This document shows positions 1 through 40,488 of a stretch of DNA of 64,000 nucleotides, one piece after another. Source of the stretch: a virus. Location: positions 1-64,000 of IMG/VR virus record IMGVR_UViG_3300030419_004148; one strand, 5' to 3'. The notes under the pieces were generated by a model. The model saw only the letters and a program-made list of their open reading frames with translations. It had not been told where the DNA came from and did no database searches. The position numbers were made by a program, and so were the translations under genes. Position 1 is the stretch's first letter. Every line of letters begins with the position of its first letter.

Positions 1-360
1 GTCCCCCCGCCGATGTGCTGCGTAGGGAGAAAACCGCTGCGTCAGGAGATTGTGCTCTCTTTTGCGGGGTGAATGGTTTGCTGCAGCAAAGTGAGATTGC
101 CGTGCTGCGTCAGCTTGGAGTGCTGCGTTCGCGCTGTTCTGCTGGCATTACGCTGAGATGCCGTCTGCGCGCTGTTATGCTGGCATTGTGCTGTTGTGCT
201 GGCATTGTGCTGTTATGCCGCGACCTATTTTTTTTTGCTCTGCTAAGGATGCTGCGTCAGTCTACTGTAAAGCGCGGTGAGAAACTGTATGCTTCAGCAA
301 AATCGGGCAGCAATAGTCTGTGCTCCCCCGTGAGAAACTGTGCTGCCAAACTAGAATGAT
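1..360. repeat. GC-rich, low-complexity left-end region with TGCTG-based repeats (possible genome terminus)
   Basis: TGCTGGCATTGTGCTGTT occurs at 178-195 and 197-214, GCTGCGTCAG three times and TGCTG more than 10 times; GC is much higher than the rest of the window. Confidence 0.6.
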
Positions 361-404
361 AACAATGTGTGTGCGTTTGCTCTTATTCCAAAGGCATACG
401 TCAG

Positions 405-540
405 AGTGTATATTATAGCTCTATATAGTATAATAGCTCTATAGGGTATTACTATATAGCACTTCTTCTTTTTATTGCTCTATAGGGCTTAGATATAATA
501 TAAGCTTATAATATGCTGTAATGCCTATCGTATAGCATAA
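405..540. other. AT-rich non-coding tract with short repeats (candidate origin or packaging region)
   Basis: TATA-rich, GCTCTATAGGG twice, ATAGCTCTATA twice, no ORF; function inferred. Confidence 0.35.
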
Positions 541-552
541 GAAGCAAACGTA

Positions 553-609
553 GAGCACCCGCGATTTTTTATGCTGGCACGAGGCTTTATATATTCACGG
601 CGTGTTGTA
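553..609 (+). promoter_or_regulatory. Early archaeal promoter, copy 1
   Basis: TTTATATA box inside GAGCAC..ATGCTGGcACGAGGcTTTATATATTCA..TTGTA; near-identical copy at 2553-2607. Confidence 0.75.
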
Positions 610-653
610 GATTTACATTTGCTGGTTATTTATAACTAGCAAGGAGCAATGAA

Positions 654-1010
654 ATGGAGAACGAAGCAATAGACATAAATGCGCTGTCTGATAAAATGCT
701 AGATGCCTTAGAAGCAGCATTGAAATCAAAAACAGCAAAGCAGACGCCGTCTACTGTTCGCCGCAGAAGGCCTAGAAAAGCATACGAACAACTTACGCCG
801 CATCCAACAAACGTATTGGCTGCGATAAAGTTCGAACGTGAGCAGGGCAATAAAAATGCTGTGACGGACGGATATGAACGAGCAAGGAAAGAAATGATAG
901 AGCAAAGGATGGAAACAGAGCAAAACTACCGCCGCCTCTATAAGAATATCGCCGAAGGAAGAATCCGTGGCGGCAATATGCGATTAGCACGCAGCGAGGT
1001 GTTAGATTGA
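654..1010 (+). CDS. hypothetical early protein
   Basis: First ORF after the promoter, AAGGAG RBS. Confidence 0.7.
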   Translation: MENEAIDINALSDKMLDALEAALKSKTAKQTPSTVRRRRPRKAYEQLTPHPTNVLAAIKFEREQGNKNAVTDGYERARKEMIEQRMETEQNYRRLYKNIAEGRIRGGNMRLARSEVLD

Positions 1011-1306
1011 GCAGCAAAGAGTGGTTTGAAATCGGCAGTGTTGAACACGATGAAGCAACACGAATTGAAGTAGCAAAACAAAGATTAGATAGCATAATAT
1101 CTATGTTTGCTGATTCCTGTGACGATATTTGCTCTGATGACCCAGAGCAATATACTCCAAAGGTAGCAAATGTATCACAGCAGACATTTGAAAAATGCTG
1201 GCACGATGCAAGTGATGCTTGGTTGGAATTAAAGTTAGCAATAACTAGAAAGCAAAGAGAAGCGAGGGCTGTGTTAGACATTGAAAAAGCAGTATCAATG
1301 AAATGA
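1007..1306 (+). CDS. hypothetical protein
   Basis: TTGA start/stop overlap, GAGGTG RBS. Confidence 0.65.
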   Translation: MSSKEWFEIGSVEHDEATRIEVAKQRLDSIISMFADSCDDICSDDPEQYTPKVANVSQQTFEKCWHDASDAWLELKLAITRKQREARAVLDIEKAVSMK

Positions 1307-1530
1307 AGCAAAACCGAGTTAAAGACGGCAGAAAGGCACTTGAAGGGGCAGCAGAATCGATGGAACAGCTGGAAGAAATATTTGGCAGCGATTTCTCAGA
1401 GCACTTCGGTGATTTTGACGGCGGTTTGTTTAACCACTTAAAGCATCAGATTTATACTGCTCGCTTTCACTTAAACTGCTATAATACAGATAAAGAGCTG
1501 GAATCGGAGTGTGAATGCTATGAACCTTAA
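1303..1530 (+). CDS. hypothetical protein
   Basis: ATGA overlap with the upstream ORF. Confidence 0.6.
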   Translation: MKQNRVKDGRKALEGAAESMEQLEEIFGSDFSEHFGDFDGGLFNHLKHQIYTARFHLNCYNTDKELESECECYEP

Positions 1531-1879
1531 AGAACTAGCAGAATTAAAAAAGGCGCTGCAATATTTTAGAAGGCTGGAAGGGACTAAACCTTTGCTGAAT
1601 CTGTATCCAACAGACGGCAAATTACATTCAGCACTAAAAGAATGCACTGCTTTGTGGTTTGAAAAAGAAGCAGACGATGTGACCAATACAGCAATTGATG
1701 ATTTCTTAAAAGCAATGTTTACAGTTCTAGCAGAAAAGAAGCTGCAACGTAAATTTATGCTTGAAATTAAAAAACTCGGCGGAGTAGGTTATAAAAGCGG
1801 TGGAGTCCACGGCAAAAATAAATACTCTGCTGATAAGAGTCGTGTAGACGGCAAACTAATACAAAGGAAGCGAAGATAA
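1511..1879 (+). CDS. hypothetical basic protein
   Basis: Part of the coupled early operon. Confidence 0.6.
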   Translation: MNAMNLKELAELKKALQYFRRLEGTKPLLNLYPTDGKLHSALKECTALWFEKEADDVTNTAIDDFLKAMFTVLAEKKLQRKFMLEIKKLGGVGYKSGGVHGKNKYSADKSRVDGKLIQRKRR

Positions 1880-1989
1880 ATGTGCAAGCAATGTAAAAAG
1901 AAAAGAGCAAAAAATAACGAACCTAGCTATGAAGAATTAAAAAGAGCATTTCCAGATAATGCTATGATTAGATTTAAAGAGCGAAGAAA

Positions 1990-2154
1990 ATGATTAGTCG
2001 AGCAGAAATTTGGCTGAAAGAGCTAGGTGTGACGCTGACAGAGCACGCTTGTGACGAGTGCAGCACAAAGTATAAGAGCATTAATCCTGAGCCAAAGCAA
2101 AAGCTCTGCCTTGATTGCTACTTAGATTTACCAGACAGCGAGGTATTTTGTTAG
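1990..2154 (+). CDS. small CxxC-CxxC zinc-finger protein (not in ORF track)
   Basis: Hand translation MISRAEIWLKELGVTLTEHACDECSTKYKSINPEPKQKLCLDCYLDLPDSEVFC; ATGA overlap with the 37-aa ORF 1880-1993. Confidence 0.6.
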   Translation: MISRAEIWLKELGVTLTEHACDECSTKYKSINPEPKQKLCLDCYLDLPDSEVFC

Positions 2155-2464
2155 ACGGCATAGAAACACAACCGCTGAGTATAGAAGAAATACAGCTAAT
2201 TGATGTAGCTGTTGCCGTGAATAAAGCTTTAGAGCCAAACTATATGCCGTCTGTGGTAAAAGTTGGCAGCGGTCAAATGGAGAATAGCTGAGATAATGAT
2301 AGCTGAAAGAGAAGAAGTGAGCAAAGAATGTATTAAAAAGCTGGGTTTTGCGTTTGTTCCCAGCACTGCTTTCGACTCCTGTTCCAAACTTGCTTCTTCT
2401 CCAGCAAATAGAGTCGGGTTGCCGCCGGTCGCCCCGCTCTTTATGAAACCGGCACTGAGAAAAT

Positions 2465-2542
2465 CCTGCCGTAGTGTAGCCCGGCCCATCATTCCGCCGT
2501 CTTGTGGCGGAGACGCTGGTTCAAATCCAGCCGGCAGGGCCA
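2465..2542 (+). tRNA. atypical tRNA: archaeal Glu/Asp-type body, nominal anticodon CTT (Lys), encoded CCA
   Basis: Acceptor CCTGCCG/CGGCAGG, D-arm GTGTAGCCCGGCCCATCAT, anticodon stem CCGCC/GGCGG with loop GTCTTGT, T-arm GCTGG-TTCAAAT-CCAGC, G73, CCA. Confidence 0.85.
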
Positions 2543-2552
2543 TTTCTTATTC

Positions 2553-2607
2553 GAGCACTCTCGGGAGAATGCTGGAACGAGGTTTTATATATTCAGAGCA
2601 CATTGTA
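2553..2607 (+). promoter_or_regulatory. Early archaeal promoter, copy 2
   Basis: GAGCAC..ATGCTGGaACGAGGtTTTATATATTCA..TTGTA upstream of the 563-aa gene. Confidence 0.75.
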
Positions 2608-2642
2608 AAAATAAAAAAAAGCGAGGAGAAAAAAAATAGCAA

Positions 2643-4334
2643 ATGAGTGAAAATGAAGCAGTGAAATGTGATAAATGCCGTGAAGTTATAACTAACGATG
2701 AAGTGCTGTCTACTGACGAATATGAGTCATTATGTCAGGACTGCTACGATAGTTTTATCGAATGTGCCTGTTGCAGCGAAGTATATGAAAATGCTTATAC
2801 TTCTACCTGTCACGGCGACCCTATATGCCGTGATTGTTATAATGGCGGCGATGTAGGTCACTGCACATCCTGTGATGCTCAGATTATTCTTAGTCACGGC
2901 GATTATTATTATGATGACCATAGTGGTGAATACTGCTGTTCAGATACGGCAGATTGCACATACTTAGATTGGAGCTGCGAAAGTTGTGGCTGCGAGATGA
3001 CTTTTGAAGAAGCAAACACAGACCACGCAGAGCAATACTTATGTTATGACTGCTACCACAATCCATCTTCTAGCATACAGAGAATGGCAGACAGCTGGAT
3101 AGATAAAGCAGATGTTCACACTAAAAGCTGGTATAAAGATTTAGATGACGGCGCAAAATTCTTTTTAGCTGAGTTTTATAGAAGCCGTGAAGATGAATTT
3201 AAAACCAGCAATCAAATGATAAAGAAAGGTGCTTTAGGTGCTGGAAGTGACAAAGGCTGGTGGGATGGAGAAATTGAAGTGCAAAGTCCTGCGTTTGCTG
3301 ATATGGCAAAAGTCATAGCAGATATATGTTATAGTGACTTATTCTTTGTCAAGCATAAGAAATACGGCCTTTATCATCCATTTAGACATCTATTTCATCA
3401 ATGCTTGAGTTATAGAGATAGGCAAGGAAGCGACACAGTGTATTATAATAGAGTCGGCAGAGATGATGACCCTCAAATAGCATTCGAAGAAGTTTGCAGA
3501 GATTATCACCGCTGGGAATTATACGCCGTTAGACATAATAAGTTAGCAAATATGTTAGCTGAAAACAAAACTGAAGATGGAGCTAATTTAAGAAAAACAA
3601 CCAGCAATATTATGAATCGCTCTTATGCAGATAGATTTGCGCTGTTATCACAAAGAAATAACACATTAGAACAATCATACCAGCAATACTTAACAAATGC
3701 TGTAAATCAAAAATATAAAATCAAAATAGGATTTGACAGCGAAGTAATGATGGACTTAGCAGATTTTAATCAAGTCGTTGGTTCCTGTCAGGATTCAGCA
3801 AATAGAATGTCTTATGCTTTTGGATTTGCAGATATGCTAGTTAATCCTCATCTGCTTGCTTTAATATATGAAGATAATAAAATTATTGGTCGCTCTGTTA
3901 TAAGATTTTGGAAGCATAGCTGGGATGACAGCAATGAAGTAGTTAAGATTGCTCCTTCACGCCTCTATTTAAGCCGTATAACTAATGCTAAGGCTGATGT
4001 TTATGTTGCTCTATTTAAACAAGTTAATGAATGGGCAAAGACAGTTTACGGCATTGATAATTATGAAATAATCGCTTACTCAGATTCACGGCACGACAGT
4101 CCAGTATATAGCTTTATTAGAGGTCATATAACAGGAAGGGATGCCTCACAGCGATTAAATACACAAGTATGGAACACATTTTGGCACAGCAAACCATCCG
4201 ATGATTGTGCTGACTATACTTATTACAAGGATGAAATGCAAAGAGCAGTATACTTTGGACAGCGAGATGGTGATGACTATTCCTGTAAAGAAACACTGCC
4301 GAATTATGGTTATAAAACATTGGAGTTAGATTAA
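2643..4334 (+). CDS. protein with N-terminal tandem CxxC zinc ribbons and a C-terminal possible GNAT/PcfJ-like domain
   Basis: About 8 CxxC-type pairs in the first 140 aa; C-terminal SCQ...LALIY..IIGRSVIRFW...RLY...LFKQVNEWAK..YG pattern; the fold call is inference. Confidence 0.6.
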   Translation: MSENEAVKCDKCREVITNDEVLSTDEYESLCQDCYDSFIECACCSEVYENAYTSTCHGDPICRDCYNGGDVGHCTSCDAQIILSHGDYYYDDHSGEYCCSDTADCTYLDWSCESCGCEMTFEEANTDHAEQYLCYDCYHNPSSSIQRMADSWIDKADVHTKSWYKDLDDGAKFFLAEFYRSREDEFKTSNQMIKKGALGAGSDKGWWDGEIEVQSPAFADMAKVIADICYSDLFFVKHKKYGLYHPFRHLFHQCLSYRDRQGSDTVYYNRVGRDDDPQIAFEEVCRDYHRWELYAVRHNKLANMLAENKTEDGANLRKTTSNIMNRSYADRFALLSQRNNTLEQSYQQYLTNAVNQKYKIKIGFDSEVMMDLADFNQVVGSCQDSANRMSYAFGFADMLVNPHLLALIYEDNKIIGRSVIRFWKHSWDDSNEVVKIAPSRLYLSRITNAKADVYVALFKQVNEWAKTVYGIDNYEIIAYSDSRHDSPVYSFIRGHITGRDASQRLNTQVWNTFWHSKPSDDCADYTYYKDEMQRAVYFGQRDGDDYSCKETLPNYGYKTLELD

Positions 4335-5687
4335 ATGAGCGAAGAAGAACCAAAAGAAGCCATAGTTAAATCTATGAGCGAAGAAGAAATGGCAAGCAAA
4401 AGTCGTTTAACCGCCGTTTACCCCGCCCCAGCAGAACAAATGAGTGACCAGCAATTATTGTATAGGATGTTTTCAATATTCAGTCCTAGCAGCGATGAAC
4501 ACGCAATGATAGCATTTGTCACAAATTATCTCCGTGATAATGAAATAGAGCACCAAATAGATAGTGCTGGAAATATATATTTTAACAATCACGTTGAAGG
4601 AGACTGCCGGATTTTACTGAATGCACATATGGATACCGTAGCAAGTGCTGTGGCAAATGTCATTCAAGTAGAAGAGGATGGGAAAGCTGTGTTTAAATCA
4701 TCAAACAATCAAGTTATAGGTGGAGACGACAAGTGTGGTGTATTTGCTGTATTAAAATGCATCACAGATAGAACAATAACAACGCCGTTAATGGGTATGT
4801 TGAATGTGTCCGAAGAGATTGGCTTAGTCGGTAGTGACTTTGCTATGGAACATCATTCTGACCTGTTCAAAGACGTTGTGTTCTGTATAACGGTAGACCG
4901 CCGTGGCAATACTGAAATTATCACAAAAAACAGCGATGTAGACTTATGCAGTGATGATATGGAAAAAATGCTTGGTGAGTGGGGCAAAGATTATGGCCTA
5001 CGAACTGCTACAGGTTCCATATCTGACGTAAGTAATGTTGTAAAAGCATTAGAAATTAATGGTATTAATTTATTTGCTGGATATTACAATGCTCACTCTG
5101 GTAGTGAAAAAGTCGTTTATGAAGAACTGCTTGAATCAGTTAGATTTATTAAGTTTTTAGTGCCGGAATTACATAAGTATTTCAGCGATAATCCTGACAA
5201 AGTGAAATATGAACCATCAAAAAGCTGGTCCAACTATCCTCGATACGGCGGATATTACGGATATACCGAATGGGGAAGTGGATACGGCCTTAAATCATAT
5301 GGCGGCGTTAAAGTATATGAAACTGCTAACGATGTAGACCATCACGAAGCATTAGATATGTTAGATATGCTGATTGAGGAAATAGAGGACATACAGGATA
5401 ATTACTTTATGTTCGATGCATTACGGCAAGCTGAGACACGATTAAGCACATCTGGAAAATCGCTAGTTATTGAAGAGGGCTGGAATTTATTCTATACTGA
5501 AATGAAAGAATTAGATGCTCACTTACACGTTTATGACGGCGGTGTATTGAAAGGTGGAAAAGCAGAAGATGCAGTTATCTCAATAAAAGTTTTACAAGCA
5601 TTTGAAGATGCAGTTAGCGCTCGCAAAACAGCCGAGCAGTTTGATGTGACTTGGGATGACTTAGATAATGGAGGAGCGACTGACTAA
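4335..5687 (+). CDS. M28/M20-family zinc exopeptidase
   Basis: Motifs AHMDTV, GGDDKCG, EEIG, DRRG, YNAH. Confidence 0.85.
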   Translation: MSEEEPKEAIVKSMSEEEMASKSRLTAVYPAPAEQMSDQQLLYRMFSIFSPSSDEHAMIAFVTNYLRDNEIEHQIDSAGNIYFNNHVEGDCRILLNAHMDTVASAVANVIQVEEDGKAVFKSSNNQVIGGDDKCGVFAVLKCITDRTITTPLMGMLNVSEEIGLVGSDFAMEHHSDLFKDVVFCITVDRRGNTEIITKNSDVDLCSDDMEKMLGEWGKDYGLRTATGSISDVSNVVKALEINGINLFAGYYNAHSGSEKVVYEELLESVRFIKFLVPELHKYFSDNPDKVKYEPSKSWSNYPRYGGYYGYTEWGSGYGLKSYGGVKVYETANDVDHHEALDMLDMLIEEIEDIQDNYFMFDALRQAETRLSTSGKSLVIEEGWNLFYTEMKELDAHLHVYDGGVLKGGKAEDAVISIKVLQAFEDAVSARKTAEQFDVTWDDLDNGGATD

Positions 5688-6013
5688 TGCCTGCTAAAGA
5701 TAGAGACTTAATGATGTGTCCTGATTGTGATAAAGCAGGAACATTACGTCACGTTGAAGAAGATAACAACCACTTTGAATGTTATAGATGCTCTGATTGT
5801 TCTGGAGAATTCTTCCCAGATGAATTAAAGCGTATACAATATAAGACAGTGAAGTTTACGAATGATAACGGCAAAGAAATATATATACCGCTAACACCTG
5901 ACAGAATTGCTAGGTTAAAAGAAGAGGGTGTATATCAAAGAGCAGCCGAAACCAGAAGAAAGCAAACTCTGAATCGCAGAGATAAAAACTTATTACGGAG
6001 GTTAAGAAAATAG
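5687..6013 (+). CDS. zinc-ribbon protein
   Basis: CPDC...CSDC, basic C-terminus, GGAGG RBS. Confidence 0.7.
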   Translation: MPAKDRDLMMCPDCDKAGTLRHVEEDNNHFECYRCSDCSGEFFPDELKRIQYKTVKFTNDNGKEIYIPLTPDRIARLKEEGVYQRAAETRRKQTLNRRDKNLLRRLRK

Positions 6014-6048
6014 GCGGCGTCCACTCACCCCGCTATATTAACCCACAA

Positions 6049-6214
6049 CCAGCAGATAGGGAAGGAGTGCCGTTTCTTACTCCTTTTTGTTTGTTTCACC
6101 AATTTTGGACAGCAAAGAAGCGTCTGGTCGCTAGCCACGCCGTTTTTATGCTGTTGTCGGTAGTAGTTCGGTTCTTCTACCGGCACAATTTGGTGCTCCT
6201 TCCCCTGCAAATGG
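6049..6214 (+). ncRNA. structured RNA closed by a canonical bulge-helix-bulge (predicted 153-nt excised/circular RNA, 6058-6210)
   Basis: CCA-GCAG-[ATA]-GGGAAGGAGTGCC pairs with GGTGCTCCTTCCC-CTGC-[AAA]-TGG; two internal hairpins. Confidence 0.6.
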
Positions 6215-6221
6215 AGAGAAA

Positions 6222-6380
6222 ATGTATAAAAGAATGACAGTAGATTTAGCAGTAAGCGAAGGCTTTGAGAAAGCGCTCGATAAGATTTTCGAGAAGCTTG
6301 GACATATGAAAATATATAATGTTATACAGCGCCCTGATGGGAGCTATTACTTGGAGAAAATATGCAAACAGCAACAATAA
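6222..6380 (+). CDS. small hypothetical protein (52 aa, not in ORF track)
   Basis: MYKRMTVDLAVSEGFEKALDKIFEKLG...; GGAG RBS at 6213-6216. Confidence 0.55.
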   Translation: MYKRMTVDLAVSEGFEKALDKIFEKLGHMKIYNVIQRPDGSYYLEKICKQQQ

Positions 6381-7141
6381 ATGTAAAAGAATTAGAGAAA
6401 TATACTGAGCTAGACATTCAGGAGATTCTCCGTGATTGGGGTAATCGCTACATTGTTTCTCGAGCAGCACTGAGATTAGGAGCTATTGACCCTGACGATG
6501 ACAGACTTGGTAATAATAGGCCGCAAACGGTAGGTTGGGCTGCTTTATGGCATCGCAACGGCCACGATTATATCCATCGCAGCAAAGCTCAACCATTTAC
6601 GCTAAATGATAGAGGAGTTTTACACGAATATAAACCTGCAGCGGAGAGGCTATTTAAACTGCTGACTACTGAAGGTTTTAGAAAGCAAATGAAGGGAGAG
6701 ATAGTGCTATATAAATCAGGAGCTGGACAACGTGAAATATCCGGCAGTAATTATCCTATACGTTTGACTGACGGAAGATACTGCTTTTACACTGGTAATT
6801 CTCAATTAGTTGATAGATTAGCTATGTCTGATGAGAATCGCTTTACTTCTGATGAAGCTGATTTATTATTCAGATTGTGGATGAATGATAACGTAGTGCT
6901 ACCTACTTGCTTTACAAACAGTCCACGAAACTCGGTTATAAAAAACAGGGCAGAAAAGGAATTTAAGAAGCGATGTTGGAAGATTTTTATGCTACTTAAT
7001 TATTTTGATGAAGATTCTTTTGAAGAATTATTTAATAGATACAGCGACCCCGAAGTCCACCGTGCTGGATTTTTAGTTTGGCAGCGTGGGGAAATAATAA
7101 CTCGCTGGGAAGGAGGTGTTATGCCACATCCCAAGTATTAA
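6362..7141 (+). CDS. hypothetical protein
   Basis: 259-aa ORF, GGAG RBS, no recognised motif. Confidence 0.75.
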   Translation: MQTATINVKELEKYTELDIQEILRDWGNRYIVSRAALRLGAIDPDDDRLGNNRPQTVGWAALWHRNGHDYIHRSKAQPFTLNDRGVLHEYKPAAERLFKLLTTEGFRKQMKGEIVLYKSGAGQREISGSNYPIRLTDGRYCFYTGNSQLVDRLAMSDENRFTSDEADLLFRLWMNDNVVLPTCFTNSPRNSVIKNRAEKEFKKRCWKIFMLLNYFDEDSFEELFNRYSDPEVHRAGFLVWQRGEIITRWEGGVMPHPKY

Positions 7142-7149
7142 ATACTTGG
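7131..7149 (+). promoter_or_regulatory. TATA box embedded in a perfect inverted repeat
   Basis: CCAAGTATT-A-AATACTTGG. Confidence 0.6.
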
Positions 7150-7158
7150 ACAACGATA

Positions 7159-7293
7159 GTGAAAGGTAGGTAGTAGTTTTGCTTGATTGCGACAATCCTC
7201 TGTATCAATCAGGCGGCGTATGAATGATAACCAACTACTTGATTTCTATACTGCTACCTACCCACAAACCTGCTCCGGTCACCCCGCAGCAGA
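7159..7293 (+). ncRNA. structured intergenic RNA
   Basis: GGTAGGTAGTAGT/ACTGCTACCTACC terminal stem, inner GCTTGATTG/CAATCAGGC stem, 3' hairpin CTGCT..AGCAG; about 25 nt downstream of a TATA box. Confidence 0.5.
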
Positions 7294-7312
7294 AACTTAA
7301 AAGGAGACATTT

Positions 7313-7582
7313 ATGCGAGAACACGACAAAAAGATATTCGAACTGCTACTAGCAGAAATATTTAAAAATAAAATAATGCTCGAAGAGATTGAAAAAGATA
7401 TCTTCGGAGAGATGCAATACCTCGCAGATATGCCGGAAGGTATAAGAGGTGAAACAGTGGGAGATTTTGAAGAAAAAGTTGGCCGTAATAGATATAAATA
7501 CGGCCCTATCGTCTTTGATGAGACTATGTTAAGTCCTCCCGCTATAAGAGAAAACGTATTGGAGAGAAAAAAGAAAAAATGA
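7313..7582 (+). CDS. hypothetical protein
   Basis: AGGAG RBS. Confidence 0.7.
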   Translation: MREHDKKIFELLLAEIFKNKIMLEEIEKDIFGEMQYLADMPEGIRGETVGDFEEKVGRNRYKYGPIVFDETMLSPPAIRENVLERKKKK

Positions 7583-7926
7583 GCAAAGAAGAAGAGAAAC
7601 TTGCTAACGATATAGACCCAGAGGAAGTAAAAATTGTAAGCAGTAAGTTTGACGAGAAAATGTATCGTTCAGCAAAAGAAGAATTAGAAGAGAGTGGTAT
7701 TAAATTAGATATAAAGATAGACCACCGTGAAGGAGAAAATACCGGAGAAGTTGTTGTAGGCTATGCTTTGGATGAAGGAGAAGATTACAGTTTCCTTGAC
7801 CCCGAGCCATTGACTGGATATACTTTGCTGGAAGAGATTAAATTTTGTTTGTATGGTTGTCAAGCAGAATTAAAAAGATTGGAGAAACTAATAGAAACAT
7901 ACGAAGATGTCAGCAGATTACAGTGA
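7579..7926 (+). CDS. acidic hypothetical protein
   Basis: ATGA overlap with the upstream ORF. Confidence 0.7.
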   Translation: MSKEEEKLANDIDPEEVKIVSSKFDEKMYRSAKEELEESGIKLDIKIDHREGENTGEVVVGYALDEGEDYSFLDPEPLTGYTLLEEIKFCLYGCQAELKRLEKLIETYEDVSRLQ

Positions 7927-10683
7927 TGAACCTGCTTGTGTTAGACGTGGCACAGGCTGGATTGATTTTTCTACAATAGAAAAGAAACGAATAAAGCGTC
8001 GTAAAGTAAAAATAAGGAGAAAGAGAAATGAAGAGAAACTACATAGTAGAACTTGATATAAGAGATATGCAAATGCTAGAAATGTATAGAATGGGATTAG
8101 AACAACAACATCCTGTTAGTGAAGTTGATACTGCTTTACACGATATTTTATGGCAGATATCAGAGCAATACCACGAGAGAGAAATGGAGAGGAATTATGA
8201 ATCGACTAACTAAAGAAGAGTATGCTGAAAAGTATGAAGCTGATGGTCATACCGGACTACCTAAGTGTAAATGCTGTGGTAGAATAGATACTGATTTTGA
8301 TATGTATAATGAGGTTATAGATGAGTGAAACGTTAGAAGATAAATACCAATATATGTGTGAATTGGTTGAGGACCAAGCACGAGAAATATTTGAATATAA
8401 AAAGATAATTGCTGGTGCTCAAAAGGTAGAAGAAGAATTGGAATACTTTGTTCAAAATATTGCTGCTCTTATTTATTATCAATGTTCTTTAAGAGACCAA
8501 GACCAATGGTTAAAGCGAGTAATGGATAAAGGTATTTGGGAACCTGAAGCCATTGAGGAAGAAGAATGAGATGTGTAAGGTGTGGTAAAGATTATATAGG
8601 TATGAAACAGCATCATAAATTTAATTGCCCTCACTGTGGGGGTGACTAATGGTTTGTGTAGATTGCTCTTGTGAAAGGTGTGAACGAGCAAAAAAGGAAG
8701 AAATGGACCAATTCAAAGAGCAGATGAAAATTGAATACCCTGATTGTGTTAAATGGCAGAATGATGATTACAGTCCGTGCTTTTGTGTGAGGTGTTTAGG
8801 ATGAAAAATTGCCCGAAATGTAAAGAACAAGCAAAGTTCGATGAAGGTAATTTAAAAATGGATATATTAGCACATTACTATTGTAGTGAATGTATGATAT
8901 GGACTGAAAATAGACACACTAGCATTTGGACTGACGGTTGTGATGAATTTTATAGTAATGGAAAGGAAAGGAGTATTTGGAGATAATGTATAGCAACGGC
9001 GATTACGCAAAAACAGGACCGCATTTCAGAAGAGGTGGTTATAAACTTTGGAATTGGTGCGTTAAATGTGAGTGTGTGTGGGAAAAGAAAATTAGCTGGT
9101 GTAGAAAATGTAATTCTCGATTAAGGTTTGGAGGGCGTTATATTAGTAGAAGGGAGAAAGAATTAAAAAATGCTCCTAAAGAACAGGTGGTGTATCAAGG
9201 ATGAAAATATTACCTTATAAATACAGAGTAGCGATAGCTTTTTTACATTTTATAATGAGATTATTAGATAAAATATACGAAGGTGAGGACATCTGGGGTC
9301 CAGAAGAGCCGTGGTGGGATACACAATGAGAATTAAAAGGGCGGTAGAAGAGTTATCTTTTTTTACCCTGCCGTTATGGGAAGTAAAGAAGGTGAAGAAA
9401 AAATGAAAATAGTCACTTGTAATACGTGTAGATGTAAGTTAGTATTTGATTATGTGAGATATAGAGACACAGCAGGTAATCCATATTGTCACATATGTTA
9501 TACGAGGTTGCTAGTATGACATTAACTGAATGGTTGATGTTTGTAGCAATAATAGATGGTCCAATATTAGGATTATTATATATGCTGTGGAGGAAGATAA
9601 GATGAATTTATTAACAGACCACGAATCTGGTTTAATTGCTGGGTTTATGTTTGGGTTAGGTATAGGAATAATTATAGGATATTATATTTTATGAAAGTAG
9701 TAGTAGATAACATAGAGATATTAGATATAACGCTCGGTTTATACGGTAATGTTTTTGTTCGTGTTAGAGATATAGATGGGTATGAATACGCAGGTGAACT
9801 CACGGAAGTGATGGAAGATGAATGAATTATGCTTAATATGTAAACATATTGTCACTCCGTATGGAGGGATGATTAAAATCAAAGGAAAATCAATGCATAT
9901 GGAATGTGCTATGATGGAATTTGAAAGTGAAGTAAGAAAAAGAGAGGAATAAAATGAGAAAAAATCATATATTAGTGAAAGAGACAGGAAGCACAGTTTG
10001 TGGTATAACACAGCTATCTGTGCAGGAAAAATACCATATGAGTAAACCATATTGGAATAAATATATTACTTGCTCTAAGTGTAAGAAGGAGTTAGACAAT
10101 GGCTCGTGTATGGCGTGAAGGTGATAAGTGTCCGATAGGGCCGAGATTTACAACAGGTGGTTATGATAAATGGAATTGGTGCTCAATATGCACTGCAATT
10201 TGGGACAAAAAAACACTGCGTTGTAAAAACTGCAATCAAATGACACGTAGTAGAACAAGGTGGAAGTAATGAAGTATAGTGCTAGTTGTGATTGTGGTTA
10301 TGAGACCCCTTTAGTAGAAAATGAAAAAGATATTGATTGGGAATTATTAGAGATACATCAGGAGTTTTGTAAATGATGGAAGATATATGTGATTTTGTTG
10401 ACGGCAGTGGTATTACTGAATGCCCTGACTGTGGTGAGATTGTAGAACCTGAATTTGATGAAAAAACACAAATGGATAAATGTCCTTACTGTTATAATGG
10501 CAAATATATGTATGGTGATGCGTGAAAGTTTGCTATATTTGTAAGAAAAATAAATGTGAAGAACTTTTAGACATTTATTGTTTAGATTGTCGTTGGGATA
10601 TACATCACAGTAGACGGTGGGATAATAGAGACCTTTCGAAAGAAGAGTGGAAACTATTATATAGAAGGTTGAATAATAGCTAA
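7907..10683 (+). other. array of about 20 coupled micro-ORFs (26-82 aa), many CxxC zinc fingers, two single-TM peptides
   Basis: Chained ATGA/TAATG overlaps, e.g. 8566-8649 MRCVRCG..CPHCGGD, 8649-8804, 8801-8986, 8986-9204, 9403-9519, 9516-9605 (TM), 9602-9694 (TM), 10099-10269. Confidence 0.7.
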
Positions 10684-10758
10684 ATTAAGCCAATTAAGCA
10701 CTTGTTTAGTCAAGCATATGTTTATAGCATATTTGCTTAATTAAGCTGCGAGGAAAGA

Positions 10759-11088
10759 ATGACTGAAGAAGAAATTATAGAAAACGAAGAAGATTTGTTC
10801 GATATGGCAAATGAAGAGAAAGAAGATAATGTAGTTATTAAGAGAGAACTTAAGTTTGCTACATTTGAGTATGATGAGACTGAGAAAACAATTACGATTG
10901 AAACTAAGTCTGATACAATACCTGACCAAAACATACACGAAACTGATGAGCAATATCAAGAAAGACTTGCTCTTCACGAACCTGCGATTAATGGTAGAAT
11001 AAAACTAAATAAAGTTTATAGTTTTGCTTTGCTAAGATTTGTTATAAGAATAGCTCAAAGAAATTGGTTTAGGAAATTAAAGAAATAA
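10759..11088 (+). CDS. hypothetical protein with acidic N-terminus
   Basis: 109-aa ORF after a palindromic intergenic region. Confidence 0.7.
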   Translation: MTEEEIIENEEDLFDMANEEKEDNVVIKRELKFATFEYDETEKTITIETKSDTIPDQNIHETDEQYQERLALHEPAINGRIKLNKVYSFALLRFVIRIAQRNWFRKLKK

Positions 11089-11125
11089 ACCAGCGGGGTG
11101 AACGGCAGCACATAAGGTGATTTAA

Positions 11126-12022
11126 ATGAGAGAAGGAAACATTAAACCTGAACTATTACAAGGAAATGCTTTAGATGTTGTTAAGGAGCTAGATGATGAG
11201 TCAATACAATGTGTTGTCACGTCACCACCTTATTGGGCTTTACGTGATTATGGTAATGAAGGGCAATTTGGTTGTGAACCAACGGTTGAAGAATATGCTA
11301 ACAATTTAGTAAAATTATTTGAAGAGATTAAACCAAAATTAAAAGAGGATGGAACAGTATGGATAAACATAGGAGACAGTTATGCCGGGTTTTCTGGTAA
11401 CACAGGCGGTGCTACAGGCAGTGATAAGAGAGGAACGCGAAACGCTTCCATCATTAAGAAAGGAGCTAACCTCAAAGAACGAGACCTTATTGGTGTGCCG
11501 TGGGTGGCTGCGCTGGCCCTCAGAGAAGCAGGATGGTATTTGCGTTGTGACATTGTATGGGCGAAACCTAACCCCATCCCTGAAAGCGTTAAAAATAGAC
11601 CCACGCGCTCGCACGAGTTTATATTTCTGCTGTCGAAAAATCCCCAATACTACTACGATATGGATGCCATAAGAGAACCACTGAAGAGTAAGATTGGACC
11701 AGCTGTTAATAAGAAAGGAGAAAGACAAATAGTGGGTAATCCTAAAGGAAAGAACTCAAGAGATGTGTGGTGGATAGCACCTAAATCTATTCGTAATTCA
11801 CATATTGCTGTGTTCCCCCCAGAATTACCTAAGAAATGTATATTAGCTGGAACAAAACCCGGCGATATTGTATTAGACCCATTTTCAGGTAGCGGCACTA
11901 CTTGTAGAGTAGCTCGTGAATTAGGGAGAAAGGGAATTGGTATTGAATTGTCAGAAGAGTATCATAAACTAGCAATGAAATTAACATTTGGAGATAACAG
12001 TTCATTAGAGGATTTTCTTTGA
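11126..12022 (+). CDS. beta-class amino-DNA methyltransferase (N4-cytosine/N6-adenine)
   Basis: TSPPY catalytic motif precedes the DPFSGSGTT SAM-binding motif; AAGGTGA RBS. Confidence 0.92.
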   Translation: MREGNIKPELLQGNALDVVKELDDESIQCVVTSPPYWALRDYGNEGQFGCEPTVEEYANNLVKLFEEIKPKLKEDGTVWINIGDSYAGFSGNTGGATGSDKRGTRNASIIKKGANLKERDLIGVPWVAALALREAGWYLRCDIVWAKPNPIPESVKNRPTRSHEFIFLLSKNPQYYYDMDAIREPLKSKIGPAVNKKGERQIVGNPKGKNSRDVWWIAPKSIRNSHIAVFPPELPKKCILAGTKPGDIVLDPFSGSGTTCRVARELGRKGIGIELSEEYHKLAMKLTFGDNSSLEDFL

Positions 12023-12085
12023 AAGAAGTCCTTATATTTTTGTTCTTTTATTTCTTTTGGCAGAAAGTATTTATGGAGATGAAAA

Positions 12086-12589
12086 ATGAAAACTAACAAT
12101 TATACAGGTAAGAATTTTGAGTGGGAAGTGAGAAAATCACTGAAAGATGCTGGATGGTGGTGGTTTAGAATACAAGATACGAATGACGTATCGAGATTCG
12201 TTAAGAAAGCCATATCTGAAAAACAACCCGGCGATTTCTTTGCGGTTGCTGATGGTTTACCCATCTTAATAGAATGTAAAACTAGTAGGAATAAAACTTC
12301 TTTTCCACTTTATTATAATAAAACACCAGCAATTCCAGAACACCAGATACAATACGCATTAGATTTAGTAGATGCTGGTGGTGTTGCTTGGTTTTTAGTG
12401 AGAAGAGATGAACCTCGTAATAAAAGAGTGTTTGCATTAAGTCCTCATCAAGTTAGATTAATGTATGATAGTGCCAGTAGAAAGTCAGTTAAATGGCACG
12501 TTATAGAGACTTTAGGAATAGAATTAGAAAGATTATCTAAACCTGTAAGATACGATATAACAAAACTTTTAAATACTACTTTAGGTTAA
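12086..12589 (+). CDS. Holliday junction resolvase-like PD-(D/E)XK nuclease
   Basis: GKNFEWEV...PGDF...LIECKT. Confidence 0.75.
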   Translation: MKTNNYTGKNFEWEVRKSLKDAGWWWFRIQDTNDVSRFVKKAISEKQPGDFFAVADGLPILIECKTSRNKTSFPLYYNKTPAIPEHQIQYALDLVDAGGVAWFLVRRDEPRNKRVFALSPHQVRLMYDSASRKSVKWHVIETLGIELERLSKPVRYDITKLLNTTLG

Positions 12590-12595
12590 AAAATT

Positions 12596-12686
12596 TGAGG
12601 ATGCGAGGCTACACAACTGGGGTAGTCCAAACCGTTATCCAAGCAGGTGAAATTGATTCCTGTGAGCCGTCGGTAAGCATTCTCAT
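12596..12686 (+). ncRNA. structured intergenic RNA or 5' leader (multi-stem)
   Basis: TGAGGATGC/GCATTCTCA closing stem, GGCTAC/GTAGTC hairpin, ACCG/CGGT and GCAGG/CCTGT stems; TTTTAAATA about 25 nt upstream. Confidence 0.5.
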
Positions 12687-12695
12687 TAGGTAAAT

Positions 12696-13043
12696 ATGTC
12701 ATTAATTAAAGACTTTCTGGGACTCGTCGATGAAGATAGCGAAAACATAACTATAGATTCGTTATTTGATAGCGAAGTAGAAAGGTCTGTCTATGATAAA
12801 TGGATTAAGATATTTACTGATTTAAAGCCAGTGGCTATAGTGCCAATGCTTGCACAAATCACTGAAACCTATAAAATGAGTAAAGAGGAAGAAATAATAG
12901 TCCTTGCTTATGTAAAATATTTTGAGATAAACATAATGAAAATTAACAAGTTTATGCAAGATGGGTTAGATGGATTAGAGGGAGTAGAAGGAAAGGGAAA
13001 TGAAAATAAAAAAACTGAATACAGCGGGTCAATGTTTGGATAA
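12696..13043 (+). CDS. hypothetical protein
   Basis: 115-aa ORF ending MFG. Confidence 0.7.
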   Translation: MSLIKDFLGLVDEDSENITIDSLFDSEVERSVYDKWIKIFTDLKPVAIVPMLAQITETYKMSKEEEIIVLAYVKYFEINIMKINKFMQDGLDGLEGVEGKGNENKKTEYSGSMFG

Positions 13044-13308
13044 ACAATTCGAAAACATCTGGTCTAAGAATGGAAAGACAAAGCAAAAGTTAATGGATAA
13101 ATTAAGAACTCGCAAAATAGAGCAAACTTATGATAATTGCCGAGATTATTTTCTTGGCCGTTACGTGTGGATTGTGGACTCGAGAACTGGAAATGGAGAG
13201 CATATGAATATAAGAACAGAACAAAAAGCATTACGGAGACTAAACTATGGAACCACACGCACAATGGAGAACAAATATAGAAAGAAGAACAGAAAGCCTT
13301 ACAAGTGA
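13000..13308 (+). CDS. basic hypothetical protein (start uncertain)
   Basis: ORF in a coupled series. Confidence 0.55.
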   Translation: MKIKKLNTAGQCLDKQFENIWSKNGKTKQKLMDKLRTRKIEQTYDNCRDYFLGRYVWIVDSRTGNGEHMNIRTEQKALRRLNYGTTRTMENKYRKKNRKPYK

Positions 13309-13555
13309 TTGGTGGCCTTTTGTTGAAAATATAAAGGAAATATTAGATAAAATGGATGAAATGCATCACGAATTTAATATGCTTGAAAACAAAGTAGATG
13401 AAACTATGGGAATGGTTAAGGGCTTGTATAAGTCTTTACATAAAGTCGGTCTATTCGATAAAGAATTTAAACTTAATTGGAAGGCTGTCGAAAAAATTAA
13501 TGAGGTCATAAATGACGAAAGAAATGAAGGAAGAGAAGAATCCACCGAAAACTGA
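13247..13555 (+). CDS. coiled-coil hypothetical protein
   Basis: GGAG RBS, heptad-like pattern. Confidence 0.6.
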   Translation: MEPHAQWRTNIERRTESLTSDWWPFVENIKEILDKMDEMHHEFNMLENKVDETMGMVKGLYKSLHKVGLFDKEFKLNWKAVEKINEVINDERNEGREESTEN

Positions 13556-13820
13556 GCAAGAGAAAAAAGAAAGATATATGTCTTTGTTTTATGATGCCTT
13601 AGAAGAGAACAAACTCTTAAAGGGCGGAAGAACACACAGATTAAGTATAGGCGGCGTATCACTAGAGATTGTTCCTAGTGCTAAACTATCACCCCGTCAA
13701 GTATTTAATATGTATGTTGAGTTTCTAAAAGAGCTAAAAGAGTTACACGGAGATAAACACTTATTTGCTGCAGTTCCGAAGGAAGGCGCAGAAAATCCGT
13801 TTGATGGACTGTTTGGTTAG
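13512..13820 (+). CDS. hypothetical protein
   Basis: GAGGT RBS; ends LFG. Confidence 0.65.
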   Translation: MTKEMKEEKNPPKTEQEKKERYMSLFYDALEENKLLKGGRTHRLSIGGVSLEIVPSAKLSPRQVFNMYVEFLKELKELHGDKHLFAAVPKEGAENPFDGLFG

Positions 13821-14078
13821 ATGCGCGGAGCAAGAGACGGTGTAACACTCGGCAAATGCCAATGGTGTAATCGTAAAATAGTAGAAGGAAATTTAGAATT
13901 ATTTAGTGCGATGGCTAAAATAATCAATACTAAATGGTATTGTGGTGATTGTATATATTCAATCAAACCATTAGTCGATGAAATATCTGAAAGCTATAAA
14001 GCAATGGAAGATATTACTGAAGCTTTTGGAGAGCCAGTGAGACTCGACCCTAAGACGGGTCGTTTAGTAAGAACCTAA
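13821..14078 (+). CDS. zinc-finger protein
   Basis: CQWC...CGDC. Confidence 0.65.
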   Translation: MRGARDGVTLGKCQWCNRKIVEGNLELFSAMAKIINTKWYCGDCIYSIKPLVDEISESYKAMEDITEAFGEPVRLDPKTGRLVRT

Positions 14079-36900: not shown

Positions 36901-38223
36901 AGTATATTGTGTTGTAGCCAAAGGCATTTTTGCAATTTTCATTCTTATCTGAATTTCAGGACCAAATGATAATCTATCCATTCCGGGTTTTGTTACATCT
37001 TGAACATTAGGTCTAGGAATACCAGCGATACACGCTATAGTACTTTGTGGAGCCGGCATAGTATAAGGACTTCCTCCAGTAGCGTCTGCATTTCTACCAA
37101 AAGGATTAGCAACATCAGCGTATACTGCTCCTGAGGTAGCACCGCTGTAATTTTCCCAAAATTGTTTCATATGTAAAACATAACCATCAGTTGAACTATC
37201 ATTTTGTTCTAAATTAGCGTAAGAATAAGCAACGAAATGTTCACTATTTCCAGCTCCTTCTAATGTTTGGTCTTTAATATCACGTTGGTCAGGTGAAGTT
37301 TGTATATAAGAAAACATAGAATTATCACTTGATAATTTAGACATATAATTTTCGTCAAATAAATTAAAAGCATAATTAGATTCAGCTCTCATAGGAGCAT
37401 CTGACCAAGCACCAGCTGCTATCCAATCAGCTCTAGTTCCATAATGGGATAACTGTGCAATATCTTCACCAAAATGTAGTGGTGCTGCAGATTCATCAGC
37501 TCTATAAAACCCATTATCATATTTTCTCAAAATTATAGTAGGGTTTGTATCTATATCTGTCCCAGCAACCATATTAATACTATCAGCAACAATATCAATC
37601 CCTGCATTAGCATATTTATTATTAAATATGCCATTTAATAGCATATTAGTCGGGTCTCGATGTTCATTAGATAAATCACTACCCGGAGTTTCGTGTAATT
37701 TAGAAACAAAAGCCATCCAATCTCTCTTTTTTATTTTAAGCACACCGAATCTAGTATCGTGTGATGGTGCAAGTATAGAATCTGGTCCTTTTCCAAAATA
37801 TTTACCTTGACCATCAAAATCTTCTACTTTCCAAGGCGTACCAAATTGATAATAAGAAGAATAAACAATAGGCGCACCAACTGTTGCTGTAGCATCAGCT
37901 AAATTACCTTCAGTAAGACTTATATTTTTTCTTAAAGCATATACATCAAAAAAAGGTGCTGTTTGTTCATTTTCTACATCAACAGAGTTTGCATAAGTAT
38001 AAAGAAACATCTGCCTAATATCATCTATAGAACCGTATGGCACATCAGCACTTGTTACAACTTGTTCTTTAGCTAAATAATATGTTCTATTAGGACCATT
38101 ACTTAAAGTCCCACTAGTACCAAGCCCAAAAAATGTGTCAGGATATCTAGAATCTATAATAATATCATCTTGGATTGTTTTTTCCCTATAAAATACATTT
38201 GGTTCTACTGTTATATCTTGCAT
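33907..38223 (-). CDS. large tail protein with C-terminal LamG/ConA-like domain
   Basis: VVLTYN..LKLYVN...FGG...GFIEE; directly after the tape measure gene. Confidence 0.65.
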   Translation of the reverse strand: MQDITVEPNVFYREKTIQDDIIIDSRYPDTFFGLGTSGTLSNGPNRTYYLAKEQVVTSADVPYGSIDDIRQMFLYTYANSVDVENEQTAPFFDVYALRKNISLTEGNLADATATVGAPIVYSSYYQFGTPWKVEDFDGQGKYFGKGPDSILAPSHDTRFGVLKIKKRDWMAFVSKLHETPGSDLSNEHRDPTNMLLNGIFNNKYANAGIDIVADSINMVAGTDIDTNPTIILRKYDNGFYRADESAAPLHFGEDIAQLSHYGTRADWIAAGAWSDAPMRAESNYAFNLFDENYMSKLSSDNSMFSYIQTSPDQRDIKDQTLEGAGNSEHFVAYSYANLEQNDSSTDGYVLHMKQFWENYSGATSGAVYADVANPFGRNADATGGSPYTMPAPQSTIACIAGIPRPNVQDVTKPGMDRLSFGPEIQIRMKIAKMPLATTQYTGSNYDTDRGVGLDRSFTIALTRRPPAPGVSFATWRDGTSAFDPCITFLYQQPEVTGNRRSTGMIDVIGVGAHDLYRNGGDSGQLCVSGNWTDIIASDYHTRIPFDTWFNLRIKLDMNTNASGGRVLAYFEGLTDSGSTEGKYSELKVATTTNIAKLWTENLTFFQTNMRAINEVTAINSTNYINNGYTLVDTYDNDDKEQSVYIDNISFYGWNTNTSNTTMCIENTPVSPIMIPSTPLVRGIEVSNSTVSLGDAISGANYFGHNETMTSSYLSFGFDSSGSVSGSYLFFNDFVAADDRDIKQIQFISGGYFTDTKYTLSGGKQGVFWDNMTVGSGAADNIRLGYYSNSVDRFTQKGSFYIQQDWVPDSASNLWRKTGNPLHAARVLTISDEGKTITVDKPEIFDVPYDTQFVAEVDSNRQGGYASYSKFKQGTGSVGYAAHSEDAGPSGRAMTQSKPRNGNTIYLTRSLYSDDANTDSYMRGNWAYATSGLTEASQILISPYKYWLNLAIVNTSGASYGHSFENLDATGNTTTFLQGRTYKSVLPTSNSGSTLGTTWNEYLFNDGIYANRHLIDFDNSDGTTIVDLSNDYGFGKPEDRTKNPNNLGYIRRDWLRAGHNYFDLSNYALTVNPKQGDVFNFIVKPSFPDYDTNLAEYSVNIRTGDNTANGAKLVYGIKDNVPVITDFEVNPVQNFLNDNVRMDIASENQASTDVLFTWEEKDKDIWYRLIWVDNKYITNKYHSLAFWAPLSGNTTTVKYKTDYSDSSSWVNLAGTNVPKLTGFQGYGSYFDGSLTISSSTEVTIADTDEMTAVVHLVPQLTGSSDMTAVCVSGASGEAMRIYINEDTKAVLAQLNNRAVTVSSSTYYACDSQEPLSVVLTYNKNLEANNLKLYVNSKLEDTADYTASMTTSGAVYFGGTPASSNYGGFIEECTFHTKMAYMAPNAKSCRISTSHLPDLNNGVSYNYNARMFAYDYHNIRGGNPNLVGTSNIAAWKVTGG

Positions 38224-38233
38224 TTATTATCCC

Positions 38234-40486: not shown

Positions 40487-40488
40487 CG

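Follow-up and report, generated by a model that had tools for sequence, protein, structure and literature searches.

A motif lattice of ~19-bp spacing overprinted on genes in the probable early region of an uncultured marine tailed virus

What kind of signal could concentrate one short word, on both strands and inside genes, at one edge of a viral genome? The question is raised by a stretch of 64,000 nucleotides (positions 1 to 64,000 of IMG/VR record IMGVR_UViG_3300030419_004148; hereafter the window), which is part of a single 75,525-bp contig. The initial annotation, made from the letters alone, had pointed to about 39 copies of ACGGC/GCCGT in positions 1-7510 against about 20 in the remainder, and to CAGCA/TGCTG as also being dense there. 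Exact counts bear out both impressions: there are 39 ACGGC/GCCGT sites (21 + 18) in 1-7510 as opposed to 23 (7 + 16) in 7511-64000, i.e. 5.2/kb versus 0.41/kb or a ~12.7-fold difference, and 61 versus 185 copies of CAGCA/TGCTG (8.1/kb versus 3.3/kb, ~2.5-fold). Although enriched as claimed, these words prove to be only sub-words of a broader motif, RGCR/YGCY (where R is a purine and Y a pyrimidine), which recurs at intervals of about 19 bp; this periodicity is the decisive feature of the signal. The observation is firm and recurs in independent assemblies, and the mechanism proposed for it below is one that we infer.

The motif subsumes AGCA, GGCA, AGCG and GGCG, and preferences in its flanks yield the consensus aCRGCR, with 32 of the 39 ACGGC sites having the form ACGGCR. 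Approximately 380 RGCR/YGCY sites occur in 8.1 kb (46.8/kb as against 17.7/kb elsewhere), which amounts to about one site per period, i.e. per 19-21 bp. The distances between GC cores peak at 20, 38, 57, 76, 95 and 115 bp and onward to ~190 bp, giving a period of ~19.3 bp (~19.2-19.5), and lags of 4-12 bp are depleted to 0.5-0.7 of chance, a depletion of the kind that steric exclusion would produce. Outside the domain, the genome has a 3-bp codon rhythm only, and this rhythm is not dominant inside it. When compared with synonymous shuffles, the spacing statistic reaches z=10.6 for the domain (0/400) and z of 4.3-4.8 in each of its three large genes, as against 2.0 and -1.0 in controls from the rest of the genome. 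The rhythm is carried only by RGCR/YGCY, RGCY and YGCR words (AGCT, TGCA etc.) being neither enriched nor periodic, and the orientation of the sites is random across the domain (207 RGCR versus 173 YGCY; 183 runs versus 189.6±9.7 in shuffles). The G+C content oscillates with the lattice, from 0.47-0.51 at ±19-21 bp to 0.33-0.37 at ±5-11 bp. A helical periodicity of 10-11 bp was looked for in the domain and is absent. Three other accounts of the rhythm were rejected: a rigid long-range lattice, as coherence fades beyond ~200 bp; an origin in hairpins or mRNA structure, as the sharpest 19-20-bp peak comes from same-orientation pairs; and amino-acid repeats, which are ruled out by the synonymous shuffles.

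The enrichment at the left stands, but not its supposed confinement to a block of ~7.5 kb. Instead there is a gradient that runs from contig position ~75,000 through the contig junction to ~7,600: the site density climbs sharply at contig ~75.0 kb, is at its maximum in a non-coding leader at the left end of the window, and returns to background by ~7.6-8 kb. Three further ACGGC/GCCGT sites lie within the last 1.2 kb of the contig.

Composition and codon usage were examined as possible sources of the excess. The GC content is 40% in the left region and 34% in the rest, the GpC odds ratio 1.56 (up to 1.9; range across the lattice domain 1.2-1.9) versus 0.99, the CC/GG odds ratio 0.81 versus 1.12, and the AC/GT odds ratio 0.79 versus 1.00. 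From Markov models fitted on the left region one expects 7.4 (order 0), 6.6 (order 1) and 9.9 (order 2) ACGGC/GCCGT sites in place of the 39 observed. We also applied 500 rounds of synonymous-codon shuffling to the left genes, holding the protein and the regional codon usage fixed, either pooled or per gene. The earlier suggestion that the excess might disappear after control for local GC, amino-acid content and codon usage is not borne out: coding DNA of the left region holds 29 ACGGC/GCCGT sites, versus 7.3±2.4 in pooled and 7.8±2.4 in per-gene shuffles (0/500). Likewise, AGCA/TGCT (138 versus 77.6±6.8), CAGCA/TGCTG (38 versus 19.2±3.9) and CGGC/GCCG (47 versus 20.6±3.8) exceed the shuffles in these genes, and GCAGC/GCTGC does so weakly (19 versus 12.0±2.4), whereas ACGGC/GCCGT in the rest of the genome is at its expectation (15 versus 15.3). 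Codons of the NGC type are 5-8 times commoner on the left than in the rest (GGC.33/.06, AGC.31/.04, TGC.52/.12), CTG codons are strongly raised, and the GC content at third codon positions (GC3) is 32% in the domain versus 19% elsewhere; accordingly, coding ACGGC sites are read NAC|GGC in 16 of 19 cases. However, the GpC excess is found not only in codon phase 2-3 (NGC codons) but also in phase 3-1, across the codon boundary, where G3 precedes C1 in 11/23, 7/11 and 8/22 cases as against ~15% otherwise. Furthermore, the non-coding DNA of the left region is at least as dense (10 ACGGC/GCCGT sites in ~1.5 kb). Because the shuffles are exceeded, the non-coding DNA is equally dense and GpC is raised across codon boundaries, the enrichment is a DNA-level rather than a translational signal, with codon usage as its vehicle and not its cause. 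Shuffles and non-coding density thus agree with the original proposal of a signal overlaid, on both strands, on coding sequence in an early part of the genome.

The contig encodes a tape-measure protein and tail fibres, and therefore represents a tailed virus, in addition to a family-B DNA polymerase (PolB), a ribonucleotide reductase, a methyltransferase and glycosyltransferases. A DNA search of a cultured-phage collection gave no match and the PolB gene has distant matches only, for which reason the virus is unclassified; the magrovirus replication gene set was not found in the contig, as far as examined. No relative is present in the prokaryote genomes searched, and no host can therefore be assigned; single-protein locus scans found nothing. 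The relatives come from marine metagenomes, including Tara Oceans. The genes that occupy the right end of the contig (68-74 kb) stand, in related contigs, directly upstream of those of the left end, and a contig from another sequencing run reaches 1,961 nt past window position 1; the genome is therefore circular or circularly permuted. The best explanation of the left ~8 kb is that it constitutes the early region of a circularly permuted ~75-kb genome of an uncultured marine tailed virus, and that this region begins at the non-coding leader. Among the 20 listed sequencing runs with this virus, which stem from at least three studies, there is no RNA run.

The distribution of candidate restriction sites sets the same region apart. 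While the 75.5-kb contig nowhere contains GATC, CATG or CCWGG (the Markov expectation being 203 for GATC and 238 for CATG), other words are lost only here: GTAC, with 176 copies elsewhere, has none from contig 73,506 to beyond 14,000, GTAAC/GTTAC has none from contig 73,836 to 11,396, and CAAGA/TCTTG has one copy from contig 73,584 to 8,497. Within the domain this corresponds to 0 observed versus 21 expected for GTAC, 0 versus 17.7 for GTAAC, and 1 versus 16.9 for CAAGA. The GTAC gap recurs in relatives (0-2 copies in the domain versus 6-23 in the flanks), and the GTAAC and CAAGA gaps are confined to particular lineages. A loss of restriction-type words that is limited to one region has been reported for the early-injected DNA of Autographiviridae phages (PMC12455610), and plasmid leading regions, described as GC-rich and codon-adapted (PMC13478746), have been discussed in the same terms (PMC13478746, PMC11541004). 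The pattern fits early-exposed, possibly first-entering DNA; of the initial view that this DNA is early or enters first, the region-only loss of GTAC, GTAAC and CAAGA and the GTAC gap in relatives support early exposure, and the order of entry would be a further step. As separate observations, CTAG, TGCA and GTAC are moderately low over the whole contig, and the 8-kb domain also lacks TACTAA/TTAGTA and ACCACC/GGTGGT.

The domain is not peculiar to this virus. Homologues of a 563-residue marker protein encoded in it reach down to 27% identity, and ~40 related marine loci with enough sequence share the domain, as judged by GpC odds ratios of 1.1-1.55, short-lag exclusion and a preferred spacing. 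In answer to the question of whether relatives show the same or different motifs, both the words and the period differ by lineage. A period of 19-20 bp is found in the present virus and in L012, L016-18, L038 and L055; one of 23.5 bp (peaks at 23, 47 and 70) in L058, L059, L062, L063 and L067; a double 15+24-bp pattern in L003-6 and L008; and almost no periodicity in L009, L049 and L050. All lineages tested for spacing are significant against synonymous shuffles (z 4.3-7.3). The preferred words are CRGCR with ACGGC in the present virus, CAGCA in L038, CGGCA in L055 and (T)GAGC in the 23.5-bp lineages, and the density of ACGGC, 5/kb here, is below 1/kb in many relatives. As the words differ while the best periodic carrier contains AGC/GCT in every lineage, the ACGGC enrichment is lineage-specific and the lattice is conserved. 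The tandem repeats found near the lattice have a unit length in agreement with the local period: it is 19 bp in the leader of the present virus, and 24 bp in L059 and 23 bp in L058, in both cases just upstream of the marker gene. In L029-L035 and L043-44 the motif density is the highest (~51-55 RGCR/kb, GC 44-45%) and the periodicity weak; their lattice may be near saturation or organised differently.

The genes of the domain are 22-60% identical to those of relatives at the amino-acid level, as against 75-92% for the genes on either side. An alignment with the closest relative available (78% nucleotide identity) places 70% of RGCR sites in register. Of the synonymous G/C positions, 80% are retained inside RGCR cores as opposed to 57-65% outside them (p=0.0015). 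In a comparison at 58% nucleotide identity, the positional conservation of the sites does not exceed background where synonymous positions are considered; single sites turn over and the periodic array persists. Such a pattern would be expected of stabilising selection on the array, with turnover of its single sites. Among near-identical strains, 3 single-nucleotide polymorphisms (SNPs) fall in cores versus 4.3 expected, among the 40 listed out of 111 SNPs. These strains differ in other respects as well: in window positions 1-8000, unpolarised + strand G>A differences (13-18) outnumber C>T (5-7) between close strains; a 112-bp spacer (1877-1990) is swapped for 83 other letters; and in a minor contig 617-1630 is swapped for 518 letters. 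The two replacements are cassette-like variation inside the early region.

Table 1. Features of the lattice domain and its surroundings (window coordinates unless marked as contig coordinates)
Feature	Position	Strand	Description
Lattice domain	1..7600, continuing into contig 75,000-75,525	both	~380 RGCR/YGCY sites, ~19.3-bp spacing
Zone of region-specific site avoidance	1..14000, from contig 73,506		GTAC, GTAAC/GTTAC, CAAGA/TCTTG
Non-coding leader, densest array	1..360	+	GCTG/TGCTG on top strand every 8-11 bp (strand-biased here)
Tandem repeat	131..218	+	19-bp unit GCGCTGTTATGCTGGCATT, 4.6 copies
AT-rich spacer	361..653	+	TATAGCTCTATAG repeats and TTTATATA box (586-593, inside GAGGCTTTATATATTCA) before first gene
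Five small, fast-evolving early open reading frames (ORFs)	654-1010, 1007-1306, 1303-1530, 1511-1879, 1990-2154	+	NGC/(NGC+NGT) 55-82%
tRNA gene	2465..2542	+	ARAGORN: Lys, anticodon CTT; Rfam tRNA, 47 bits; carries two GCCGT sites
563-residue marker protein gene	2643..4334	+	N-terminal CxxC zinc-ribbon array and GNAT-like fold; in-gene periodicity z=4.8
M28/M42-like peptidase gene	4335..5687	+	Old conserved fold; lattice overprinted, z=4.3 versus synonymous shuffles
Zinc-ribbon protein with basic tail	5687-6013	+	Distal, weaker lattice part
259-residue ORF	6362-7141	+	z=4.7; distal, weaker lattice part
89-residue ORF	7313-7582	+	Distal, weaker lattice part
N6/N4 DNA methyltransferase (PF01555)	11126..12022	+	Just outside lattice; candidate writer if the sites are modification targets

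The features within the domain are listed in Table 1. In the leader, the bin at the junction contains 17 GCTG versus 4 CAGC, and two other sequencing runs (strains) lack exactly 19 nt near position 200, within the 19-bp array. The protein encoded by the fourth small ORF (122 residues) is kept in all lineages (homologues in L001-L009 and L015) and has a nearly invariant tail that is glycine-rich and basic (GGVGYxSGGVHGKNxYSxDKSRVDGRLIQRKRR). The first 140 residues of the marker protein contain ~8 conserved CxxC pairs, and its remainder gives consistent weak Foldseek matches to GNAT acetyltransferases (model pLDDT, i.e. predicted local distance difference test score, 84.8). Its gene has the tRNA gene upstream and the peptidase gene directly downstream; a scan against Rfam gave only this tRNA. 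Recurrent TTTATATA boxes are found ~55-70 nt upstream of the start codons of several genes, including the marker gene, and a shared promoter-like box, GAGG(C/T)TTTATATATTCA, is seen at 581-597 and ~2575-2592, before the first early gene and the marker gene. Both kinds of box would fit archaeal TATA/BRE (B recognition element) promoters and are a hint, unproven, of an archaeal host. Bacterial promoter and terminator scans gave nothing above shuffles. A further box, GCGGGGTGA(A/G)(T/C)GG, occurs between genes of the early region at window positions 64, 6025(-), 7279(-) and 11093 and contig positions 75,477 and 75,486, with two copies (64 and contig 75,486) standing ~103 bp apart on either side of the contig junction. 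Elsewhere, the tape-measure gene (37,500-40,500) also has a high GpC odds ratio (1.3-1.6), yet neither a CGGC excess nor a 19-bp rhythm; this is probably an alanine-codon effect.

What might read such a lattice? We tentatively regard the AGC/GGC sites as docking sites for a DNA-coating protein, a reading that we find plausible though somewhat short of probable. Close-packed docking on weak anchors, with nucleation in the leader, is favoured by several features taken together: an orientation-blind duplex motif with short-range exclusion, a preferred distance between neighbours, the gradient from a dense non-coding array, the lineage-specific period and word, and the period-matching tandem repeats. 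The density pattern looks like nucleation and spreading, and co-variation of period and word by lineage is as expected for a protein and its sites. Under such a scheme, a DNA-binding protein whose footprint spans ~19 bp, or 23.5 bp in another lineage, would dock on the short duplex motifs in either orientation, the sites within genes being written through synonymous codon choice and codon-boundary bases. The protein would nucleate on the tandem array of the leader, polymerise rightwards and coat the early genes, and the coat might shield or regulate the first-exposed DNA. That a protein reads the lattice, that this DNA is the first to enter, and that the effect is one of protection or regulation are all points that we infer. 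A bolder version, which we put forward as possible but doubtful, is that of a "chromatin code" of marine, probably archaeal tailed viruses, in which AGC/GGC anchors would each receive one protomer of a virus-specific protein, possibly carried in the virion, and would form a cis-encoded shield or timer against host defences.

Several findings weigh against a docking protein. No reader emerges from the proteins of the domain: the structure model of the conserved 122-residue protein is poor (pLDDT 68), the marker protein looks, as modelled, like a zinc-ribbon/GNAT enzyme, and Pfam and PHROGs searches of the small proteins of the domain reveal nothing DNA-binding beyond a weak zinc ribbon, a relaxed Pfam search of them giving nothing usable. 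A core of 3-4 bp carries little information for a sequence-specific protein, and as neither 19.3 nor 23.5 bp is a multiple of the helical repeat, a simple same-face geometry does not hold. The lineages with a GpC excess and little periodicity (L009, L049 and L050) do not readily conform to it either. A part of the shift in GC3 and codon usage could stem from codon adaptation of early genes, as reported for plasmid leading regions (PMC13478746). Finally, contigs of relatives and of other runs cross the contig junction uninterrupted, and do not thereby fix genome ends or a direction of entry.

Among the functions first listed for the signal, protein-loading sites and methyl-mark targets remain viable. 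If the AGC/GGC sites were modification targets, which we consider unlikely, they would be substrates of the viral N6/N4 methyltransferase, of a host enzyme or of a glycosyl-type hypermodification, and the even spacing would afford uniform shielding in advance of anti-defence proteins. This would accord with a signal that lies on duplex DNA, orientation-blind and evenly spaced, with the methyltransferase and several glycosyltransferases that the virus encodes, and with the lack of enrichment of palindromic flanks (AGCT, TGCA) around the GC core; moreover, the extra site avoidance in this region and the genome-wide purge of GATC, CATG and CCWGG imply strong restriction pressure. However, the methyltransferase is ~85% identical between genomes with different lattice words, and a target for modification needs density, not a spacing of 19.3 or 23.5 bp with exclusion at 4-12 bp; the period-matching tandem repeats near the lattice are also left without explanation. 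A by-product of mutation, repair or recombination has to our minds a distinctly small chance of being the answer. Here a process moving rightwards from a fixed nick or break in the leader (packaging cut, origin or recombination-dependent replication) would bias substitutions, for instance by GC-biased gene conversion or a context-specific deaminase/repair pair, raising GC and GpC and speeding divergence. AGC/AGY serine codons are mutation hotspots in antibody genes, and in a variant of this idea the AGC words could be hotspots that focus mutation on arms-race genes. The one-way gradient, which issues from a point source and is sharply bounded upstream, the low identity of domain genes relative to their flanks, the raised GC3, and the cassette replacements and indels between near-identical strains all speak for it. 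Yet no known mutational process sets motifs at a fixed spacing of 19.3 or 23.5 bp with lineage-specific words, the signal is strand-symmetric though all domain genes lie on one strand, the synonymous G/C of the cores is more and not less conserved in comparison with the close relative, and unselected hotspots would erode.

The intrinsic mechanics of the DNA would dispense with a reader altogether, and to these we assign a chance slightly lower again: evenly spaced GC 'clamps' in AT-rich DNA would tune the melting, bending or supercoiling of a last-packaged/first-ejected or early-transcribed segment, or, in a variant, could disfavour wrapping by host chromatin proteins. The G+C oscillation in step with the lattice is in keeping with this, as are the depletion of GC steps 10 bp apart, which is the opposite of histone-favouring phasing, and the TTTATATA promoter boxes that hint at an archaeal host. 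But a physical constant should not vary between sister lineages (19.3 versus 23.5 bp), the flanks of the GC core matter (RGCR versus RGCY), the preferred words change by lineage, and there is no power at 10-11 bp. That the region is an ordinary compositional island, i.e. a recent or host-like module or one adapted for fast translation, in which the words rise with GC and with GGC, AGC and CTG codons, is very improbable. The higher GC, the raised NGC and CTG codons, the NAC|GGC reading of most coding ACGGC sites and the GC-rich, codon-adapted state reported for plasmid leading regions (PMC13478746) do point that way, but shuffles reproduced neither the counts nor the spacing: a ~4-fold excess is left after fixing protein and regional codon usage, and the count also lies beyond the order-2 Markov model. 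In addition, the signal extends to non-coding DNA and codon boundaries, its period is not that of codons, and the domain is not recent, being kept down to 27% marker identity. We give equally little credence to Chi-like protection sites, which would halt a nuclease that processes DNA ends, or to restriction decoys, which would absorb an enzyme such as BceAI (ACGGC) or BbvI (GCAGC), both of which ideas the initial annotation had entertained. The domain adjoins a probable genome end or leader, and the leader has the strand-biased GCTGG-like words noted above; but Chi function is polar whereas orientation over the domain is random, ACGGC is not depleted in the rest of the genome (24 versus 25.6 expected), the lattices of several relatives lack it and use CAGCA or TGAGC, and GCAGC/GCTGC is only weakly above shuffles.

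The docking of a coating protein remains the reading that we prefer. A kilobase-scale lattice of non-codon period on conserved genes means that several hundred choices of synonymous codon and codon-boundary base, all in a single viral region, can be imposed by selection at the DNA level. The lattice offers a directly testable handle on the means by which viral DNA is shielded or organised while it lies exposed and the virus has yet to make proteins, and on how early and late regions are distinguished. The shift of period between lineages (19.3 versus 23.5 bp) is a natural experiment that may lead to the reader protein, and regular spacing relative to synonymous shuffles, combined with region-specific loss of restriction sites, provides a signature with which viromes can be screened. 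If true, the "chromatin code" would be a new class of genome-scale overprinted signal.

In the literature searched we found no precedent for a kilobase-scale motif lattice of non-codon period overprinted on genes, and we could match the signal to no described one. With Chi and the Type IIS sites of BceAI and BbvI it has in common short asymmetric words of the same letters, but it lacks polarity, its word is not avoided elsewhere, and relatives do not conserve that word. The stoperators of cluster A mycobacteriophages (L5 gp71) are likewise many dispersed copies of a short asymmetric protein-binding site running through genes; however, they number ~24-30 sites of 13 bp, are spread genome-wide and oriented with transcription, and are not known to have a fixed spacing. 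T7-like early-injected regions and the leading regions of conjugative plasmids resemble the domain in containing variable anti-defence-type genes that meet host defences first (PMC12455610, PMC11541004, PMC13478746), in that restriction motifs matter only there, and in being GC-richer with a different codon usage. Yet they are known for site depletion and codon adaptation, with no periodic motif enrichment described, and the order of entry in the present case would still be conjectural.

Two further systems come closer in the length of their units. Iterons of plasmid and lambdoid origins (19-22-bp repeats, as in the lambda O gene) recall the near-identical 19-bp tandem unit of the non-coding leader; the copy number of this unit varies between strains, and iteron repeats can lie inside coding sequence. 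Unlike the lattice, iterons comprise 4 to ~15 near-identical 17-22-mers in one orientation, whereas here there are ~380 sites with a shared core of 3-5 bp, in both orientations over 8 kb, and no recognised initiator gene, neither Pfam nor PHROGs detecting a Rep or initiator family among the domain proteins. The p6 protein of phi29 is a viral DNA-coating protein with a fixed period of ~24 bp, which nucleates near the genome end, spreads inward and controls early transcription and replication. Its signal lies in a pattern of bendability that spans a few hundred bp, not in a sequence word, and is not known to be overprinted on 8 kb of genes by means of synonymous sites. In the present virus the periodic signal is there, yet the contigs run through the junction without a fixed end, and Pfam and PHROGs give no p6-type match among the domain proteins. 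The two cases agree in length scale (19-24 bp) and would agree in location, be it a genome end or an early region; p6 may be viewed as a functional analogue of the protein that would read the lattice.

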